The translations under genes were made by a program, and so were the position numbers. Shown here in pieces: positions 2,993-59,089 of a DNA stretch of 64,000 nt (position 1 is the stretch's first letter; each line of letters opens with the position of its first letter). The DNA is from Escherichia coli (GTDB lineage: Bacteria; Pseudomonadota; Gammaproteobacteria; Enterobacterales; Enterobacteriaceae): assembly GCF_050920415.1 (NCBI RefSeq), contig NZ_CP169309.1. The stretch is one strand, 5' to 3'. The notes beneath the pieces were generated by a model, which was given only the letters and a program-made list of their open reading frames with translations, did not search any database and was not told the DNA's origin.

Positions 2993-3294
2993 GAAAAGCT
3001 GAAGGGCGTCAACCGAAAAATGACCAATGATGGTGAGGAAAAATCAGGGAAGATGAAAAAAATTCATCTTAATTAGAGGTAATAAATAGATTTCTTTATA
3101 GCGCAATCAACCTCACTCGTTTTGACTGATATACAGGCAACACAACGGCACCTGTTTCTCATTCGAAAAACAACGCCCTGCCACCAGATGGTGATGCTAA
3201 AGCATCTGATTCGGCCTGCGCTCTCGTGTAGGCCGAATACAGAATCTGCGAAATCAACGGGTAACAAACAGCAGAGTCAACTCAGTGCGTACTT

Positions 3295-4850
3295 TTATTT
3301 AATATCTTTCACGCGCATACCGTTGATCTGTTCATCCGTGATGGTATTACCCGCTTTAAAGTAATCAACCACCGCGTGATAAACGTAATAACCGCCCGTC
3401 GTATTGCGCGCTTTACCCTCGGTAAACGCGGTAAAACCATCTCCACCATCAGCAAGGAAACTCTGAGTGGCAATGTGGTAAACCGTCGCATCTTCAATCG
3501 GTTTGCCATTCAAAGTCAGTGAGATAACCCGCTGACCAACCGGCTTGCTGCTGTCGTACTTCATTTCCAGGCCTTTCGATACCTGTAAAACGCCATTACT
3601 TAAACTTGCGCCGTGTTCCATCAAACTGCGTAATTGTTTACCCGTGAGATCCATCGTCACCAGTTCGTTGGGGAACGGGAAGGTACTGATGACGCCACCC
3701 ATCGTAATTGCACCCGCCGGGATCTCATTGCGAATCCCGCCAGAGTTGGTTAACGCCAACTGGGTATTTTTACCCGCCGCTGCCAGCAAAGCGTCCGCCG
3801 CCAGGTTCCCGAGGGAAGCCGATTCACCATAGGCACGTTTTAATTCAACCGGCGATTGCGCCACCGTTTGCTGACTTCATCCAGCTTTTTGTTCCAACTA
3901 TCAATCACCTGTTTCGTTTGCGGATCGGGCTTCCACTCATCGGCGTAAAGGGTTTTAAGCTCGAAGTTTTTCACCGTAAAAGTGTGCGGCTTCTCTTTGT
4001 AGTCGAGAACCAGTTTACCCACATCAATCCCGCCGCTGTCAGTGGAGAGGATTAACGTATTGCCGACTTTAATCGGTTCCGGCGTACCCACATGTGCATG
4101 CCCGGTGATCAAAATATCCAGCCCTTTCACCTGACTTGCCGTCTGAATATCTTTATCCAGCGCGCGACGCACATCTGTGCCTCCCATACTGGACTGGCGG
4201 GCCGGAACACCTTCGTGGATCAGGGCAACGGTCAAATCAACCTTGCCTTTGAGTTCATCGATATAACGTTGTAGCCATTTAATTTCATCACGCGCCTCAA
4301 TACCCACTCGCGTTGCCGCAGATACCGTATCATTAAAGGCAAATACACCGTGCAAACCAATCACGCCAATTTTCACGCCGTCTTTTTCAATGATGGTATA
4401 GGGCTTATCCCAGAATGATTTACTGCTGTTCTGATAAAAAACATTACCCTGCACAATCGGGAATTTTGCCTGACTCAGCTGTAATAACGTATTGTCCCAG
4501 CCGTGATCAAATTCATGATTACCTATAGTGACCGCATCGAACGGCATGGTATTCATAATATCGATAATCGCCTTGCCTTTAGTCAGGCTGCTGATATACG
4601 GCCCGGTAAAATAGTCACCCGCATCAAAAAACCAGGTCGCTTTGTTTTTAGCTTTTTCTTGTTTAACAAGCGTAGTGATATTTGCCCAGCCGCCAATATC
4701 TCGTTTACCGTCAGCAATCCACGGCACTTTATAAGGCTCTACATGTGCATGGAGGTCGTTGGTATAAATGATGGTGACATCTTTGGCGCAAGCCCAAAAC
4801 GGCAGTGTTAATGCGATACCCGCAGCAAGCATTTTAATTTTCATAAACAA
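3295..4850 (-). pseudogene. 5'-nucleotidase / metallophosphatase family paralog disrupted by a frameshift
   Basis: Two overlapping minus-strand ORFs in different frames (3840-4850, 336 aa; 3295-3864, 189 aa). Together they align end to end with the intact paralog at 7922-9547 (N-part ...[15 protein letters not shown]; C-part [19 protein letters not shown]...). The frame break is near 3850-3865. Metallophosphatase motifs DxH, GDxxxG and GNHE are present. Confidence 0.75.
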
Positions 4851-4893
4851 TCCCTTCCAGTGAGATAAAGGATTGCTACATTACGTTCTGAAA

Positions 4894-4909
4894 GGCTTTT
4901 TTATGTGAG
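4894..4909. promoter_or_regulatory. perfect-consensus CRP-type site TGTGA-N6-TCACA in a divergent promoter region
   Basis: Sequence tTGTGAgaatacTCACAt sits between the divergent starts at 4850 (minus) and 4977 (plus). Both half-sites match the CRP consensus exactly. Confidence 0.55.
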
Positions 4910-4976
4910 AATACTCACATCCAGAGGCGATAACTGTAGGACAAAATCAACGACCTTATGAAATCGTTGGTGATAT

Positions 4977-6104
4977 ATGTCAAATCTGTTTGCGATTAAT
5001 GTCTGTAAAACGTTCGGTTGTCGAAATTTGGGATTGGCCTCATCGGAAGATTACAGTTGGCCAGACTATAAACTGGGTTTTCCGGCACTACACTGCCAGG
5101 CATGCGGAAGTTACCCCCCTTTGTTTGATGAACAACAATTTCGTGACTGGTTGTCAGTTCACATGACTACGTGTGCCATAGAAACAGGGCATTTTTGTCC
5201 ATCATGCTATTGTAAAGAAAAGATTTTTTATGGCCACAACCCGCAGGGAACACAACGCGTTCAATGCCGTTCATGCAAAAAAGTCTGGACTCCGAAACAG
5301 CAGCCAGCAAGAGAAATTACGTATCCCCAGTCCATTGAAACCGTTCAACTGTTCATGCCCTTTCAAGGAGCCAGCGCACTACAAAAGCTCTATGTTTTAG
5401 TCAGTCTTGACGCCACTCGTGGCAACATCCTTCATCTCTCCACGAATTATACGCAACATCAGACAGGAGACAGTCTGCGGTACAGTTACAGAGGCAATAC
5501 AGAACCAACTGAGCACCATAGCGATATTGTGCAGAGGGTAGATATGCGTGAAGCGCAATTCTTGCGCCGGAGCCAGTTCGATGAAATTCAGTATGGCAGT
5601 GCTGTGCTCAAGCGCAATGGCAAGGGAGCCATACTACGCCCGGTTATCACGGCACACGGGCATTTCAGAATACTGAAAATCCGCTTTCCACATGTCAAAA
5701 CGCATATCATTTCACACGAATGTTTTCTGAGAGGCGCAATTATTACAGCCTGGGCAGATCAGTTCCGCCAACAACAAGGCGAACTTTGGTTCGTAGAAGA
5801 AGAAATCAGCGACCGTAACGCTGATATTCCCTGGCATTTTCAGGGAACGACATACCATGGTTGGTGGCAAAATCAGTGGCAACGCTGGGGGCAGGGGAAT
5901 AACAGCAAGATGGTCTGCCTGCTCACAGGAGTCTCCTTAGAAAGGGGCGCAAATGTTTCTCTGGCAACCAGTCGTTGCTTTATCACATGGCTGACAGACC
6001 AACACGACTTTACCCAAAGCGCGTTATTATCCGCAGGTCGCGTAACGAAAATGCTGACCTCACTGGCGTTAAAATACAATGAATCGCTCAATCCATCTTG
6101 TTAG
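4977..6104 (+). CDS. hypothetical cysteine-rich protein (multiple CxxC pairs, possible zinc-ribbon N-terminus); function unknown
   Basis: 375-aa ORF with no signal peptide. N-terminal 100 residues carry C10/C15, C40/C43, C74/C77/C79 and C97/C100 (HCQACGS..., CPSCYC..., CRSCKKVW). The C-terminal part is Trp-rich. I do not recognise the family. Confidence 0.65.
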   Translation: MSNLFAINVCKTFGCRNLGLASSEDYSWPDYKLGFPALHCQACGSYPPLFDEQQFRDWLSVHMTTCAIETGHFCPSCYCKEKIFYGHNPQGTQRVQCRSCKKVWTPKQQPAREITYPQSIETVQLFMPFQGASALQKLYVLVSLDATRGNILHLSTNYTQHQTGDSLRYSYRGNTEPTEHHSDIVQRVDMREAQFLRRSQFDEIQYGSAVLKRNGKGAILRPVITAHGHFRILKIRFPHVKTHIISHECFLRGAIITAWADQFRQQQGELWFVEEEISDRNADIPWHFQGTTYHGWWQNQWQRWGQGNNSKMVCLLTGVSLERGANVSLATSRCFITWLTDQHDFTQSALLSAGRVTKMLTSLALKYNESLNPSC

Positions 6105-6222
6105 TCAATACACTCGACAAACGACCATAAATTAATGGGATCACTATTTCTCATTTAATTAAATATATGAATGTATGACTGAAAAATATAATCACAGTCA
6201 ATGTTTAATTAATAACATTATT

Positions 6223-6238
6223 TGTTACTAAGATCACA
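6223..6238. promoter_or_regulatory. CRP-like site (TGTTA-N6-TCACA, one mismatch) upstream of the nucleotidase/tsx-like gene set
   Basis: tTGTTActaagaTCACAt lies about 95 bp upstream of the 6334 start in an AT-rich 229-bp leader. Confidence 0.3.
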
Positions 6239-6333
6239 TAATACTTTCCTGACCTATGCTTACATAAAAATAAGACACGGAGTTCCTTTTATTTAAATAA
6301 TTCAACCAATGTAACAACCCCTATCAAGGAGGG

Positions 6334-7887
6334 ATGATGAGAACTGTATTTACGACTTTATCAGTCATATTCAGCGTGATGTTTTCTCACAGTATACTAG
6401 CTCAGGACGTTACTATTTATTATACGAATGATATTCACGCACATGTCAATCCGGCAAAAATTCCCGCTGTTGATAAGAACAGACTTGTAGGTGGTATGGC
6501 TAATATCGCAGGCATCGTTAATGAAGCGAAGAAAAAAAACAAAGATGTCTTTTTCTTTGATGCAGGCGACTATTTTACCGGTCCGTATATCAGTACCCTG
6601 ACCAAAGGTGAAGCTATTATTGATATCATGAACACCATGCCCTTTGATGCGGTGTCCGTTGGTAATCACGAGTTCGATCACGGCGTGCCCAATATGGTAT
6701 CTCAGTTATCAAAAGCAAAATTCCCCATTCTGCTGGGAAATATTTACTACACCGATACAAATAAACCAGTTTGGGATCATCCGTGGACCATTATCGAAAA
6801 AGATGGTTTAAAGATTGGTGTGATTGGATTGCATGGTGCATTCGCTTTCTATGATACAGTCGCGGCAAAAGCACGTGAAGGCGTAGAAGCCAGAGACGAA
6901 ATTAAATATTTAAATAAAGCACTTGCAGAATTAAAAGGTAAAGTCGACATTACCGTTTTGCTAATTCACGAAGGTGTTCCGGCGCGTCAATCAAGCTTTG
7001 GTAGTAAAGATGTGGAGCGGCTACTACAGGCAGATATTGAGACAGCTAAAAAAGTGAATGGTGTTGATGTCTTAATTACCGGTCACGCACATGTCGGAAC
7101 ACCGCAACCAATAAAAGTTAATAACACATTAATTGTATCTACCGATGCATACGGCACCGACATCGGAAAACTTGTGCTTGATTACAATCCGAAAACAAAG
7201 AAAATTGATAGTTATAATGGTGAGTTAATCACCATCTTTGCAGATCAATTTAAACCTGACACCATCGTTCAAAATACTATCGATAAATGGAGCGTAAAAC
7301 TTAACAAAATAACACAGGAAGTTGTCGGCCATTCTCCCGTAGTTTTAACACGTGAGTATGGCAGTTCTTCTTCTACCGGTAACCTTATTCTGGATGCAAT
7401 GATGGAAAAAACACCTGATGCCATTGCCGGATTTCAAAATAGCGGTGGGATGCGAGCTGATTTTCCTAAAGGTGATATCACACTGGGAGATGTTATTAGC
7501 ACATTCCCCTTTAATAATGACCTCATCGAGATGGATTTGACGGGCCGCGATCTCAAATCGTTGATGACGCATGCAACCAATCTAACTAACGGTGTGTTAC
7601 AGGTTTCAAAAAGCGTTGCGGTTGTCTATGACAGCAAAAAACCACTCAACCAACGGTTAATCTCTTTCACCATTAACGGCAAACCCGTGGAAGATAATCA
7701 AACATATCGTATTGCCACGCACTCCTTTTGTGCCAGTGGTGGTGACGGTTTTGAAGCATTTTTGAATGGAAAAAATGTGAAGACGATACCGGGAACAACC
7801 TCGGCGGAATCAATCATCGATTATTTCAAAAATCATAAACCTGTCACCCCAGACTTAACTAAACGAGTCATGGACGTCGCCAAATAA
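6334..7887 (+). CDS. periplasmic bifunctional metallophosphatase / 5'-nucleotidase family protein (UshA-like)
   Basis: 517-aa ORF with a signal peptide (MMRTVFTTLSVIFSVMFSHSILA|QD), metallophosphatase motifs (TNDIHAH, FDAGDYFTG, GNHEFD) and a 5'-nucleotidase-type C-terminal domain. Strong Shine-Dalgarno (aaggaggg) precedes the start. Confidence 0.85.
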   Translation: MMRTVFTTLSVIFSVMFSHSILAQDVTIYYTNDIHAHVNPAKIPAVDKNRLVGGMANIAGIVNEAKKKNKDVFFFDAGDYFTGPYISTLTKGEAIIDIMNTMPFDAVSVGNHEFDHGVPNMVSQLSKAKFPILLGNIYYTDTNKPVWDHPWTIIEKDGLKIGVIGLHGAFAFYDTVAAKAREGVEARDEIKYLNKALAELKGKVDITVLLIHEGVPARQSSFGSKDVERLLQADIETAKKVNGVDVLITGHAHVGTPQPIKVNNTLIVSTDAYGTDIGKLVLDYNPKTKKIDSYNGELITIFADQFKPDTIVQNTIDKWSVKLNKITQEVVGHSPVVLTREYGSSSSTGNLILDAMMEKTPDAIAGFQNSGGMRADFPKGDITLGDVISTFPFNNDLIEMDLTGRDLKSLMTHATNLTNGVLQVSKSVAVVYDSKKPLNQRLISFTINGKPVEDNQTYRIATHSFCASGGDGFEAFLNGKNVKTIPGTTSAESIIDYFKNHKPVTPDLTKRVMDVAK

Positions 7888-7921
7888 AATATCATTTATC
7901 AGTCTATATATTTAACAAGGA

Positions 7922-9547
7922 ATGCGAATGAAAACAGTGCAGCGTACTTTACTTGCCGCAACATTGCTGACTATTTTTTCGGTCTCAGTCATGGCGCAGG
8001 ATGGCACGATTATTTATACAAATGATCTTCACACTCATGTGGATTCTTATAAAGTGCCGTATATCGCAGACGGAAAACGCGACATTGGCGGCTTTGCCAA
8101 TATATCTACTTTAGTAAAACAAGAGAAAGCGAAAAATAAAGCCACCTTTTATTTTGATGCTGGAGACTATTTCACCGGCCCTTATATCAGCAGTCTGACA
8201 AAGGGCGAAGCAATAATTGACATTATGAATACCATGCCTTTTGACGCAGTATCAATCGGCAATCATGAGTTTGACCATGGCTGGGATAATGCCCTGCGAC
8301 AATTAAGCAAAGCGAATTTTCCTGTTTTATTGGGCAATGTTTATCATAAAGAGAGTGAGAAACCCTTCTGGAACAAGCCCTACACCATCCTGGAAAAAGA
8401 TGGCATCAAGATTGGTATTATTGGGCTACACGGCGTATTTGCATTTAATGATACGGTCTCGGAGCTCTCTCTCCAGGGACTCGATAATGACAATAATAAC
8501 CGCTTTGATAAATCTTCCGAGACCCTTAAGAATCAGGGGATTGAAGCACGTGATGAAGTGAAGTATTTGCAGCATTATATCGACGAGTTACGTGATAAGG
8601 TTGACCTCACTGTGGCGCTGGTTCATGAAGGCGTTCCGGCGCGTCAGTCCAGCATTGGCAATACAGATGTTAGACGCGCTCTTGATAAAGATATTCAAAC
8701 CGCTAGCAAGGTGAAAGGATTGGATATTCTGATTACCGGGCATGCCCACGTCGGAACGCCAGAACCAATCAAAGTCGGCAACACCTTAATCCTTTCGACT
8801 GATAGTGGCGGTATCGATATTGGTAAATTAGTCCTTGATGTCAACCCTACAGCTCGTACCCATAAAATGAAGAGCTTTGAGCTGAAAACAGTTTATGCCG
8901 ATGAATGGATACCCGATCCAACGACACAAAAAGTTATCAATGGCTGGAATAAAAAACTGGCGGATATTGTACGCCAACCAGTGGGTGAATCATCGATTGT
9001 ATTAACTCGCGCCTATGGTGAGTCATCGCAACTAGGCAACCTGTTTACCGATGCAATGCTTGTCGCTGCTCCGACTGCACAGATTGCATTGATAAACTCC
9101 GGCAGCTTACGTGCGGATATAAATGCAGGCACGATTACCTTTGGCGACATTACCAGTACATTCCCCTTCAAGAATGAACTTACTGAAATGGATCTCAGCG
9201 GTAAGGATCTGCGTAACCTACTGGAACACGGGGCATCGCTTACCAATGGCATCCTGCAAATGTCAAAAGGCGCAGAAATGCGCTATACCCCGCAGAAACC
9301 AGTAGGTCAGCGCATAGTATCTTTTAAAATTAATGGTGAAGAGATCGTTGATACGAATATTTACCATGTTGCAACAACGACTTTCCTTGCACTGGGGGGC
9401 GATGGTTTTCTGGCATTCAAAGAAGGGAAAAATGTTCAGGTCCGCGCCAGAAATAACATGTCCGATGTCGTGATCGATTATTTGAAGAAAGGCCACAAGA
9501 TTACGCCTGCACAGGTAAATGAAATGCGGGTGGACGTTAGCAAATAA
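7922..9547 (+). CDS. periplasmic bifunctional metallophosphatase / 5'-nucleotidase family protein, second paralog
   Basis: 541-aa ORF with a signal peptide (…VSVMA|QDG) and the same motif set. It is about 80% identical by eye to the frameshifted copy at 3295-4850 and carries an extra low-complexity insert (LQGLDNDNNNRFDKSSETLKNQ). Confidence 0.85.
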   Translation: MRMKTVQRTLLAATLLTIFSVSVMAQDGTIIYTNDLHTHVDSYKVPYIADGKRDIGGFANISTLVKQEKAKNKATFYFDAGDYFTGPYISSLTKGEAIIDIMNTMPFDAVSIGNHEFDHGWDNALRQLSKANFPVLLGNVYHKESEKPFWNKPYTILEKDGIKIGIIGLHGVFAFNDTVSELSLQGLDNDNNNRFDKSSETLKNQGIEARDEVKYLQHYIDELRDKVDLTVALVHEGVPARQSSIGNTDVRRALDKDIQTASKVKGLDILITGHAHVGTPEPIKVGNTLILSTDSGGIDIGKLVLDVNPTARTHKMKSFELKTVYADEWIPDPTTQKVINGWNKKLADIVRQPVGESSIVLTRAYGESSQLGNLFTDAMLVAAPTAQIALINSGSLRADINAGTITFGDITSTFPFKNELTEMDLSGKDLRNLLEHGASLTNGILQMSKGAEMRYTPQKPVGQRIVSFKINGEEIVDTNIYHVATTTFLALGGDGFLAFKEGKNVQVRARNNMSDVVIDYLKKGHKITPAQVNEMRVDVSK

Positions 9548-9557
9548 TAAAAAATTA

Positions 9558-9592
9558 TAATGCCATTCATTCACTGAATGGCATTATTTTTC
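9558..9592 (+). terminator. rho-independent terminator-like hairpin after the second nucleotidase gene
   Basis: Inverted repeat aatgccattca / tgaatggcatt with loop ttcac, followed by a T-run (tattttt). Confidence 0.55.
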
Positions 9593-9624
9593 TCTAAATC
9601 AACAATAAATAATGAGATATATTT

Positions 9625-10485
9625 ATGTGTATAAAAAAGCACGGGATAGCTTTATCGATTCTATTAATACCTTGCATTGGAAACGCTCAGGAAATTAAAA
9701 GTGAGGAAGGCTGGTTACATCAAAGCTTGAATGTCATTGGTCGCACAGACTCTCGCTTTGGCCCAAGGCTGACTAACGACCTCTACCCTGAATATACTGT
9801 AGCAGGAAGAAAAGACTGGTTTGATTTTTATGGTTATGTTGATCTACCAAAATTCTTTGGCGTCGGCAGTCACTATGATGTTGGGATCTGGGATGAGGGC
9901 TCACCACTATTTACGGAAATAGAACCTCGGTTTTCCATTGACAAATTGACCGGATTAAATCTTGCGTTCGGCCCTTTTAAAGAATGGTTCATTGCAAACA
10001 ACTATGTCTATGATATGGGTGACAACCAGTCATCCCGGCAAAGTACATGGTATATGGGGCTTGGTACAGATATCGACACGGGTCTACCAATTAAGCTTTC
10101 TGCCAATATATACACCAAGTATCAGTGGCAAAACTATGGTGCCGCTAATGAAAATGAATGGGACGGATATCGATTCAAAATAAAATATAGCATTCCTCTT
10201 ACCCATTTATTCGGAGGGCGATTGGTATACAATAGTTTTACTAACTTTGATTTTGGCTCCGATCTTGCGGACAAATCACACAATAATAAACGAACCAGTA
10301 ATGCTATTGCTTCAAGCCATATCCTTTCCCTGCTATATGAACACTGGAAATTTGCATTTACACTACGTTATTTTCACAACGGTGGACAATGGAATGCTGG
10401 GGAGAAAGTTAACTTCGGAGATGGTCCATTTGAATTAAAAAACACAGGATGGGGAACCTATACTACTATTGGTTATCAATTTTAA
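9625..10485 (+). CDS. Tsx-family outer-membrane nucleoside-specific channel paralog
   Basis: 286-aa ORF with a signal peptide (…IGNA|QE). It shares long blocks with E. coli Tsx as I remember it ([90 protein letters not shown]) and ends in an aromatic residue. Confidence 0.85.
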
Positions 10486-10630
10486 ATCAGGTGATGTTTT
10501 AGATATTTTTACTTAATGCCATTTTGTAATTGTCATAAATAACTTCACCATTCACACTGTGAATTCATCGCTCAACACAAAAGCCCCTTATTACCGGGGC
10601 ACTGACCAAAGGCAAAATGACAATCAATCA

Positions 10631-42306: not shown

Positions 42307-42425
42307 TTATCGGATAATTGTTTTTATTTTGAAATTGATCACAAAAAAACCACCGCCGTTGGCGATGGTTCATTTTTTAAGCTGATATGCGGCGTAAACG
42401 CCTCATTGCAGCAGGCGGCAAATGA

Positions 42426-58255: not shown

Positions 58256-59089
58256 TTAATTACTCAAACGCTGCGGATGGGTATAAACCGTTGCCCGACC
58301 CGGCTTACAAAAGCCCACCAGCGTCAAATTACAGCGCTCAGCCACTTCTACGGCAAGCGTGGTCGCGGCAGACACCGCAAACAAAATTTCTACGCCGCAC
58401 ATCGCTGACTTTTGCACCATTTCATAACTGGCACGACTGGAAACCAGCACCGCACCTTGCTGCCAGCTTTCCCCTTCTTGTGACCGGCGGCCTAACAGTT
58501 TATCCAGCGCCACATGGCGACCCACGTCTTCATGCCCGCCTACCAGTTCGCCAGATGGCAACATCCAGGCAGCGGCGTGAGTACAACCAGTCAGTTGCCC
58601 CACTGGCTGGAAATCATTGAGATGGCGTAATGCATCATCCAGTTTGTTGAGATCAAATGTCTGAGTGAACGGCAGCGGCTGCACCGGTTTACCGATGTCA
58701 TTAAGTTGCTCCACGCCGCACACGCCACATCCCGTACGTCCCGCCAGTGCCCGACGACGCTCCTTCAACCCCATAAAGCGGCGGCTGGAAAGCTCAATTT
58801 GCACTTCCAGACCATTACAGGAAGGAACGACATCCATACCGAAGATATCGCGCGGACTTTCGATAATCCCCTCGGAAAGCGAAAAACCGAGCGCAAAGTA
58901 TTCAAGGTCTTTGGGCGACGCCATCATCACCACATGCGAAATGCCGTTGTAGACCAGCGCAACGGGAACCTCTTCCGCCACCTCATCTAACCGTGGGTGT
59001 TGTAAATCGTCACGCCGCCATAACTCAATTTGACGAACACCTGTGACATTTGTCACATTTTTGATTTCTTTTTGCTGTGTTTTTTTCAC
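58256..59089 (-). CDS. fdhD: formate dehydrogenase sulfurtransferase / accessory protein FdhD
   Basis: 277-aa [52 protein letters not shown]... recognised as FdhD. Confidence 0.95.

Follow-up and report, generated by a model that had tools for sequence, protein, structure and literature searches.

The tsx, nupG, nupC, cdd and deo genes of Escherichia coli all belong to the CRP regulon (PMC3105977), and the distal CRP site of nupG, AAATGTTATCCACATCACAATT, centred at -92.5, is a RegulonDB entry in Table S4 of the same paper. A role in nucleoside processing and uptake has also been proposed, from gene content only, for the 'GR31 metL..metF' region, which is common to extraintestinal pathogenic E. 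coli (ExPEC) strains in a 2026 comparative paper (PMC12928451). Here we analyse a 64,000-nucleotide stretch of E. coli DNA (contig NZ_CP169309.1; henceforth the window) that carries this island, and in it a 229-bp AT-rich spacer at 6105-6333, located between a gene for a 375-amino-acid cytoplasmic protein and nt1, the first of two 5'-nucleotidase genes that are followed by a tsx-like gene (nt1-nt2-tsxL, all on the + strand). The spacer, which we refer to as the leader, is the putative regulatory region of these three genes, and their function fits that of the known regulon members. Using a weight matrix we located in it a candidate cAMP-CRP site, ATTTGTTACTAAGATCACATAA, at 6220-6241 (core 6223-6238, centre 6230.5). 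We consider this 22-mer a probable CRP target, with binding predicted from its sequence, and we lean somewhat towards the view that the spacer is the regulatory region of an ExPEC-associated operon, in which CRP bound at 6220-6241 would drive nt1-nt2-tsxL.

A classical-quality CRP match upstream of nt1

The core of the site, TGTTACTAAGATCACA, occupies 6223-6238, with TGTTA at 6223-6227, CTAAGA at 6228-6233 and TCACA at 6234-6238. It departs from TGTGA-N6-TCACA by one mismatch (nine of the ten core bases match) and ends 96 bp before position 6334. The original prediction had placed a TGTTA-N6-TCACA motif with one mismatch here, about 95 bp upstream of 6334, and was right both about its position and about the mismatch count; it understated the cost of that mismatch, since it is the most conserved G that is hit. 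The right half, AGATCACA, is perfect and reads as specific for CRP rather than FNR; FNR was rejected on the half-sites, which appear to be of the CRP type. Mismatch counting alone offers modest evidence for an excess over chance: six sites in the window have no more than one mismatch where 1.92 would be expected, and as many turn up in 3 of 100 shuffles.

The weight matrix is symmetric, spans 22 bp and was derived from 186 distinct RegulonDB sites (Table S4 of Shimada et al. 2011, PMC3105977). The 22-mer at 6220-6241 scores 16.6 bits, the second best value among the approximately 64,000 positions of the window, and lies above 95% of the 186 RegulonDB sites, a percentile that is flattering because the list includes many weak or doubtful sites. 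Scored with the same matrix, lacP1 (15.4 bits), galP1 (11.5), malT (14.1) and the two deoP2 sites (13.5 and 16.3) all fall below it. When the leader is shuffled with its dinucleotides preserved, 0.14% of the shuffles reach 16.6 bits, and block shuffles of the window give 0.035 matches at this level where two are observed. Within the window the matrix behaves sensibly: other top matches lie in the rhaS-rhaB spacer (46281) and upstream of cytR (18260), rhaT/sodA (43186) and glpF (25529), all of them CRP-dependent promoters. The rhaT/sodA and glpF sites belonged to the training set, while the rhaS-rhaB and cytR sites did not. The best CRP-like match of the window, TATTTTGAAATTGATCACAAAA (18.2 bits, 42325-42346), is found upstream of kdgT, and a perfect CRP core, TGTGACATTTGTCACA, is present at 59039-59060 in the 5' end of fdhD. 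Weaker CRP-like 22-mers in the leader, at 6127 and 6199, score 9.2-9.6 bits; the mean maximum of the shuffles is 8.7, and both were rejected as being at shuffle level.

The leader occurs as one copy per genome and in two main alleles that are about 91% identical: the window type, found in 97 genomes at at least 95% identity, and a B2/CFT073 type, found in 561 genomes at 90-95% identity and accounting for about 85% of carriers. The core of the site is identical in all sampled alleles, and one rare allele differs in the uncontacted spacer of the site. A stretch of 43 bp with the site inside (6197-6239) shows no difference between the two main alleles, which are otherwise about 9% divergent, and all 658 carrier genomes keep 6195-6244 at at least 95% identity. 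When the alleles are aligned, the B2-type change in 6195-6244 is T6240C, outside the core, and the CFT073 allele of the site (NC_004431.1, 4656300-4656315, minus strand) scores 15.3 bits. We read this invariance as weak evidence, consistent with constraint.

The site is a statistically strong match of classical quality, situated in non-coding DNA ahead of genes whose functions fit catabolite control. That CRP occupies it and activates instead of repressing, where transcription would start, and that the three genes would share a transcript are inferences.

Core promoter and CRP geometry

Promoter prediction brought up no convincing sigma-70 core promoter in the leader. With a simple sigma-70 matrix the best leader score is 6.6, exactly the median of the top scores that random 229-bp tiles of the window give, and on this ground the leader has no strong constitutive promoter. 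Such a background-level score fits an activator-dependent promoter and, equally, no promoter at all. Because the spacer has no strong constitutive promoter of its own, we suggest that cAMP-CRP at 6220-6241 would recruit RNA polymerase to a weak promoter directly downstream.

At class II promoters CRP is centred at -41.5, and at class I promoters at -61.5, -71.5, -82.5 or -92.5. Three candidate -10 elements follow the leader site on the + strand. TATGCT (6255-6260) begins 16 nt after TCACA, with both spacing and hexamer as at galP2, and would set CRP at -36.5; TGcTTACAT (6257-6265), at the position of the galP1 extended -10 and without the A at -11, would set it at -41.5; and TACATA (6261-6266), without the T at -7, would set it at -42.5. 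These elements overlap and are weak, and none of them scores as a strong promoter. The stretch that they share, 6255-6266, varies among alleles by a 1-bp indel, and one allele reads TTATAAAAAT. Farther downstream on the same strand, TATTTA (6290-6295), which has no recognisable -35, would put CRP at -71.5, and the pair AAGACA-18-AATAAT (6272-6301) would initiate near 6308 with CRP at about -77.5. The hexamers of the latter pair are conserved in all alleles; its matrix score of 5.0 is below the median of the random tiles. With low confidence we favour a class-II-like arrangement for the leader site, in which the -10 elements at 6255-6266 would be used, transcription would start near 6267-6275 and the untranslated leader would be about 60 nt long. 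The alternative geometry would be class I, with a start near 6302.

A conserved CRP site between nt0 and the gene for the 375-amino-acid protein

A further site in the same island offers a parallel. The third 5'-nucleotidase paralogue of the island, nt0 (3295-4850, - strand), carries a frameshift in this strain, and its CFT073 counterpart is intact. It is divergent from the gene for the 375-amino-acid Cys-rich cytoplasmic protein (4977-6104, + strand), which stands directly upstream of the leader, and between the two lies TGTGAGAATACTCACA at 4904-4919, the first CRP site of the island, with a perfect core and a matrix score of 13.2 bits. We compared 14 loci from seven genera (Escherichia, Citrobacter, Enterobacter, Phytobacter, Pseudocitrobacter, Rahnella and Silvania). 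All of them have TGTGA as one arm, 12 have TCACA, TCGCA or GCACA as the other, and the six bases between the arms are free to vary, which is the pattern to be expected for CRP. On the nt0 side a conserved TAAnGT hexamer begins 20 nt past TCACA, which would place CRP at -40.5, and on the other side CAAAAT or CAGAAT begins 22 nt away, which would place it at -42.5. Given the arm pattern and these class-II hexamers, the nucleotidase module very probably belongs to the CRP regulon in all these bacteria. The inverted repeat CAACGA-N10-TCGTTG at 4949-4970, just 5' of the start codon of the 375-amino-acid protein, is likewise conserved across genera; it scores as terminator-like on the minus strand and could be a hairpin of the 5' untranslated region or an operator.

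In E. coli the nt1-nt2-tsxL block has moved off the promoter at 4904-4919 and carries its own high-scoring CRP site. Elsewhere the cluster is ordered differently: nt0 and the gene for the 375-amino-acid protein point away from each other, and homologues of nt1, tsx and nt2 come after nt0. This order was seen in Citrobacter, Enterobacter, E. albertii and one atypical E. coli, and one such genome also carries a fourth nucleotidase gene and a second pair of the 375-amino-acid protein gene and nt0 adjoining metL. Because other genera carry this differently ordered cluster, the E. coli B2/D/F gene order is a rearrangement. The short spacers before the nt1 homologue in the other genera contain no CRP-like core and bear no likeness to the leader. 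Since the nt0 site is conserved and these spacers lack such a core, the E. coli rearrangement would appear to have kept CRP control by way of the second site. Nucleotide and nucleoside scavenging by nt1-nt2-tsxL would then come under catabolite repression, paralleling the 4904-4919 site of nt0 and its divergent neighbour.

The family of the 375-amino-acid protein is small, with 137 clusters at 50% identity in a set of 1.84 billion proteins, and 'cytoplasmic protein' is the only annotation that the sources give it. Its N-terminus matches the zinc ribbon of InsA/IS1595 transposases, the best E-value, 1.4e-7, being that of a distant member of the family, and its AlphaFold model, computed from a 64-sequence alignment, is confident, with a predicted local distance difference test score (pLDDT) of 93 and a predicted template modelling score (pTM) of 0.93. 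In each of the 14 loci that cover the region upstream of nt0, the gene is present once and forms a pair with nt0. The protein looks like a domesticated transposase. A more far-reaching proposal makes the metL-metF island a self-contained nucleotide-scavenging module wired to CRP twice. Following the E. coli-specific rearrangement, a second CRP site with a gal-like pair of overlapping -10 elements would have restored catabolite control of nt1-nt2-tsxL, and cAMP-CRP would switch between two start sites instead of merely turning the operon on. The 375-amino-acid protein, with its zinc ribbon of the InsA type and an RNase H fold like that of DDE transposases, would be a domesticated transposase that works for the module as a DNA-binding regulator or a nuclease. 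We think it improbable that the island works in this way.

Weighing CRP activation against the alternatives

Several points weigh against CRP activation from 6220-6241, besides the flattering percentile already mentioned. The mismatch replaces G4 of the CRP 16-mer by T and so removes the most conserved contact, while C13 is kept; these two are the most conserved bases of the CRP box (PMC3105977). In favour of the site, a TGTTA half is also present in documented sites, those of nupG at -92.5 (TGTTA...TCACA) and glpD at -63.5 (TGTTA...TCACT; PMC3105977, Table S4). There is no canonical -10 at class-II distance, as neither TTACAT, without its A at -11, nor TACATA, without its T at -7, qualifies. 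The better hexamer, TATGCT, gives CRP at -36.5, where CRP represses galP2, and the conserved AAGACA/AATAAT pair puts it at -77.5, on the wrong helical face for class I. The conservation rests on two deep haplotypes in one species, and the 43-bp invariant run is not significant alone (P ~0.3 by a rough estimate). A scan of one genome per bacterial species and of plasmids yielded no outgroup for the leader, that is, no orthologous leader in other species or genera or on plasmids. Our literature searches brought up no start-site maps, binding or chromatin immunoprecipitation data, crp-mutant or crp regulon data, or locus-tag mentions that are usable for the locus, and nothing on how the island is regulated.

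The alternative that best withstands the evidence, and still an unlikely one, is read-through: nt1-nt2-tsxL would be mainly the distal part of a four-gene transcript from the CRP promoter of the 375-amino-acid protein gene, and the leader site would be auxiliary or dispensable, serving a minor internal promoter or being a mere occupancy site. That upstream gene has its conserved CRP site at about -42.5, the leader lacks a strong core promoter, and no terminator-like structure is found on the + strand of 6105-6333. As no terminator follows the gene and the leader RNA is unstructured, read-through is a real alternative or an additional source of transcript. If the leader had no role, however, a 229-bp spacer with a 16.6-bit CRP site would be unexpected, and Rho terminates readily in untranslated spacers that are rich in AT, which also counts against a long transcript. 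Moreover, elsewhere the gene for the 375-amino-acid protein is a single-gene unit ending against metL, from which it follows that the nt1 block joined it secondarily.

CRP could also act on the nearest hexamer in the opposite sense, a possibility that we regard as remote. Bound at 6230.5, it would block a promoter made of TATGCT with ATCACA as its -35, a 16-bp spacer and a start near 6267. This would either repress plainly or move initiation 5 bp downstream to TGcTTACAT, as at galP2/galP1. The spacing and hexamer of TCACA-16 nt-TATGCT do equal those of galP2, a TGn extended -10 follows 5 bp on, and of the promoter candidates beyond the CRP site the TATGCT pair scores as one of the better ones. 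Yet TATGCT lacks the TG extension of galP2, TTACAT is a poor -10 and the promoter scores are at background level. A CRP-repressed scavenging operon would, in addition, run contrary to the nt0 promoter and to the logic of tsx, nupG and deo.

We give a similarly small chance to a fortuitous match in AT-rich foreign DNA, with the site unused and the locus silenced by H-NS or otherwise driven. The extreme AT-richness, the horizontal acquisition of the island, the mismatch at a key G and the shallow conservation evidence all speak for it. They are to be set against the shuffles that preserve AT content, of which 0.14% reach the score, and against a window expectation of 0.035; the other palindromes of the leader are at chance level and the CRP site is above it.

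Least likely by far is a CytR/CRP or DeoR promoter of the tsx, nupG or deo type, which needs tandem CRP sites and a CytR operator, or the DeoR operator TGTTAGAA.TTCTAACA: the function of the genes resembles those regulons and cytR lies 12 kb away, but the leader contains neither TGCAA nor TTGCA, the CytR core, and lacks a suitably spaced partner for its CRP site, the runner-up 22-mers (9.2-9.6 bits) standing 21 and 93 bp away. The CytR/CRP architecture of two CRP sites about 30-53 bp apart with octamers GTTGCATT (TGCAA core) is thus absent from the leader in both its core and its partner site. Taking the DeoR operators, 16-bp palindromes, from the K-12 deo region, we found that TGTTTAATTAATAACA at 6202-6217 matches the deo operator in 11 of 16 positions, a value that 25% of leader shuffles reach (P = 0.25), and it was rejected. 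The site at 4904-4919 matches deoO2 in 14 of 16 positions; DeoR was rejected there as well, for its spacer varies freely in the other genera, which fits CRP.

Composition and other elements of the leader

The leader is delimited by an upstream open reading frame that stops at 6104 and a nucleotidase open reading frame that begins at 6334. Its G+C content of 0.284 falls in the lowest 0.4% of 229-bp windows and it is one of four such stretches in the 64 kb, so that the AT-rich 229-bp leader is present as it was first described, coordinates included. The suspicion of horizontal acquisition has likewise held up, given the low G+C content of the island and its accessory distribution. That H-NS binds the leader is a guess, with which the composition and the accessory distribution would fit.

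No Rfam family matches the leader, and its RNA fold is not better than that of shuffles (z = -0.64); a riboswitch, a small RNA or a structured leader was rejected on these two results. A leader peptide was rejected too, since the open reading frames of the leader are only 24-27 amino acids long with TTG starts. The inverted repeats, including AATGTT-N8-AACATT at 6200-6219, are not enriched over shuffles (P = 0.17) and were set aside. An imperfect palindrome at 6174-6198 encloses a perfect TATAAT (6187-6192), and its allele differences look compensatory, with GACTG...CAGTC here and GACCG/GACCA...TGGTC in B2. A Fur box at 6181 within this palindrome was rejected (13 of 19 positions match, P = 0.24). 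A 13-nt direct repeat, 77% identical, is present at 6132-6144 and 6225-6237, 93 bp apart. Each copy has a GATC (6139 and 6232), one of them within the CRP site, and two GATC are about what chance gives for the spacer.

Comparing the leader with the tsx, nupC and nupG regulatory regions by eye only, we noticed only identities of 10 and 11 nt to the nupC CRP site. That site, documented at -89.5, is AAATGTATGACAGATCACTATT; its two halves occur in the leader as GATCACTATTT (6139-6149) and AATGTATGAC (6170-6179), where they stand apart and in reversed order.

The island and its operon

The low-G+C chromosomal island sits between metF and metL, at about 3100-10600 of the window, with a G+C content of about 0.40-0.45 against about 0.55 in the flanks. 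It is carried by 658 of 5426 complete E. coli genomes, always as one chromosomal copy, and is horizontally acquired accessory DNA of low G+C content. The first gene after the leader, nt1 (6334-7887, + strand), encodes a secreted metallophosphatase/5'-nucleotidase of the UshA/YfkN type with 517 amino acids, as indicated by NCBIfam matches and the RefSeq annotation, and its translation shows a signal-peptide-like N-terminus. A Shine-Dalgarno sequence, AAGGAGG (6326-6332), precedes two candidate ATGs at 6334 and 6337 (6326-6339 in all, + strand), of which RefSeq picks the second. In a scan of one genome per bacterial species, the relatives of nt1 elsewhere, found in Citrobacter, Enterobacter, E. 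albertii and others, are at most 73% identical. The second paralogue, nt2 (7922-9547, + strand), encodes 541 amino acids and is 54% identical to nt1.

The tsx-like gene, tsxL (9625-10485, + strand), is intact and encodes a nucleoside-specific outer-membrane channel of 286 amino acids (NCBIfam NF011686, 490 bits). RefSeq calls the tsx-like gene of an identical strain a pseudogene 'missing C-terminus'. The open reading frame is full length, ends in YQF, the usual aromatic end, and its product is 97.6% identical to the intact CFT073 protein; the pseudogene label is probably an annotation artefact.

The gap between nt1 and nt2 measures 34 bp (40 bp with the annotated start) and that between nt2 and tsxL 77 bp. 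The second figure is as originally given and the first, given as 35 bp, is off by one; with all three genes on the same strand the gaps look tight enough for an operon, as had been proposed. The terminator-like hairpin that had been noted before tsxL is there in the window allele: 9557-9587 (+ strand) forms a perfect 13-bp hairpin (-16.7 kcal/mol, z = -7.1), and the stem is followed by TTTTTCTCT, with UUUUUCUCU as the U-run. In the majority B2 allele it is degraded. The CFT073 stem has three substitutions that are not compensated, its T-run is interrupted and it folds at only -5.3 kcal/mol, and because the stem is degraded in the CFT073/B2 allele, the hairpin looks like a terminator or attenuator in the window allele only and not like a conserved feature of the locus. 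The 37 bp from the hairpin to the tsxL start codon would scarcely accommodate a separate promoter. The left arm of the hairpin shares bases with a TATAAT at 9556-9561.

What CRP control would mean

If CRP does drive nt1-nt2-tsxL, the genes would be expressed under carbon limitation and not with glucose. The site would also hint at what the genes are for, namely drawing carbon, nitrogen or phosphate from extracellular nucleotides. Adenosine is another possible product of secreted 5'-nucleotidases, so that their control bears on tests of a role in host colonisation. The island occurs in about 12% of complete E. coli genomes, among them the extraintestinal pathogens CFT073, CE10 and strains of avian pathogenic E. 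coli (APEC) as well as the probiotic Nissle 1917. It has so far been described by gene content alone (PMC12928451), and the CRP site adds a prediction of when its genes are expressed. The regulation itself would be of textbook type, and a further catabolic operon under CRP control would be no surprise to specialists.

Comparison with known systems

The nearest likeness is to nupG. The documented nupG site, TGTTATCCACATCACA, has the same pentamers TGTTA and TCACA as the leader site, is embedded in AT-rich flanks and stands upstream of a nucleoside-uptake gene; with the same matrix it scores 19.3 bits, against 16.6 bits for the leader site. The two regions differ in that the nupG site is followed, 50 bp downstream, by another CRP site, and operators for CytR and DeoR lie between this pair and around it, whereas the leader has neither a partner site nor a CytR or DeoR motif. 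The same difference separates the leader from tsx-p2, cdd, udp and deoP2. These, too, are promoters of catabolite-controlled genes for nucleoside uptake and breakdown, the Tsx channel included, and their tandem-CRP and CytR architecture is absent from the leader.

In the spacing of its promoter elements the leader resembles galP1/galP2. In both regions two overlapping -10 elements, offset by 5 bp, follow the CRP half-site at equal distance; they share TATGCT as the first hexamer, and a TGc stands ahead of the second. The second hexamer itself is TTACAT in the leader and TATGGT in galP1 (extended -10 TGcTATGGT); moreover, the leader has no TG before TATGCT and no GalR operators.

Finally, the leader can be set beside the promoter region that nt0 shares with the gene for the 375-amino-acid protein. 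Both lie in the same island next to paralogous nucleotidase genes, and in both TCACATAA comes after a CRP site, as does a weak -10 about 20-22 nt away. The site at 4904-4919 has a perfect core, is found in at least seven genera and has a clear class-II geometry, whereas the leader site is E. coli-specific, and between its flanks and the region upstream of nt0 no homology could be detected (alignment P = 0.12).

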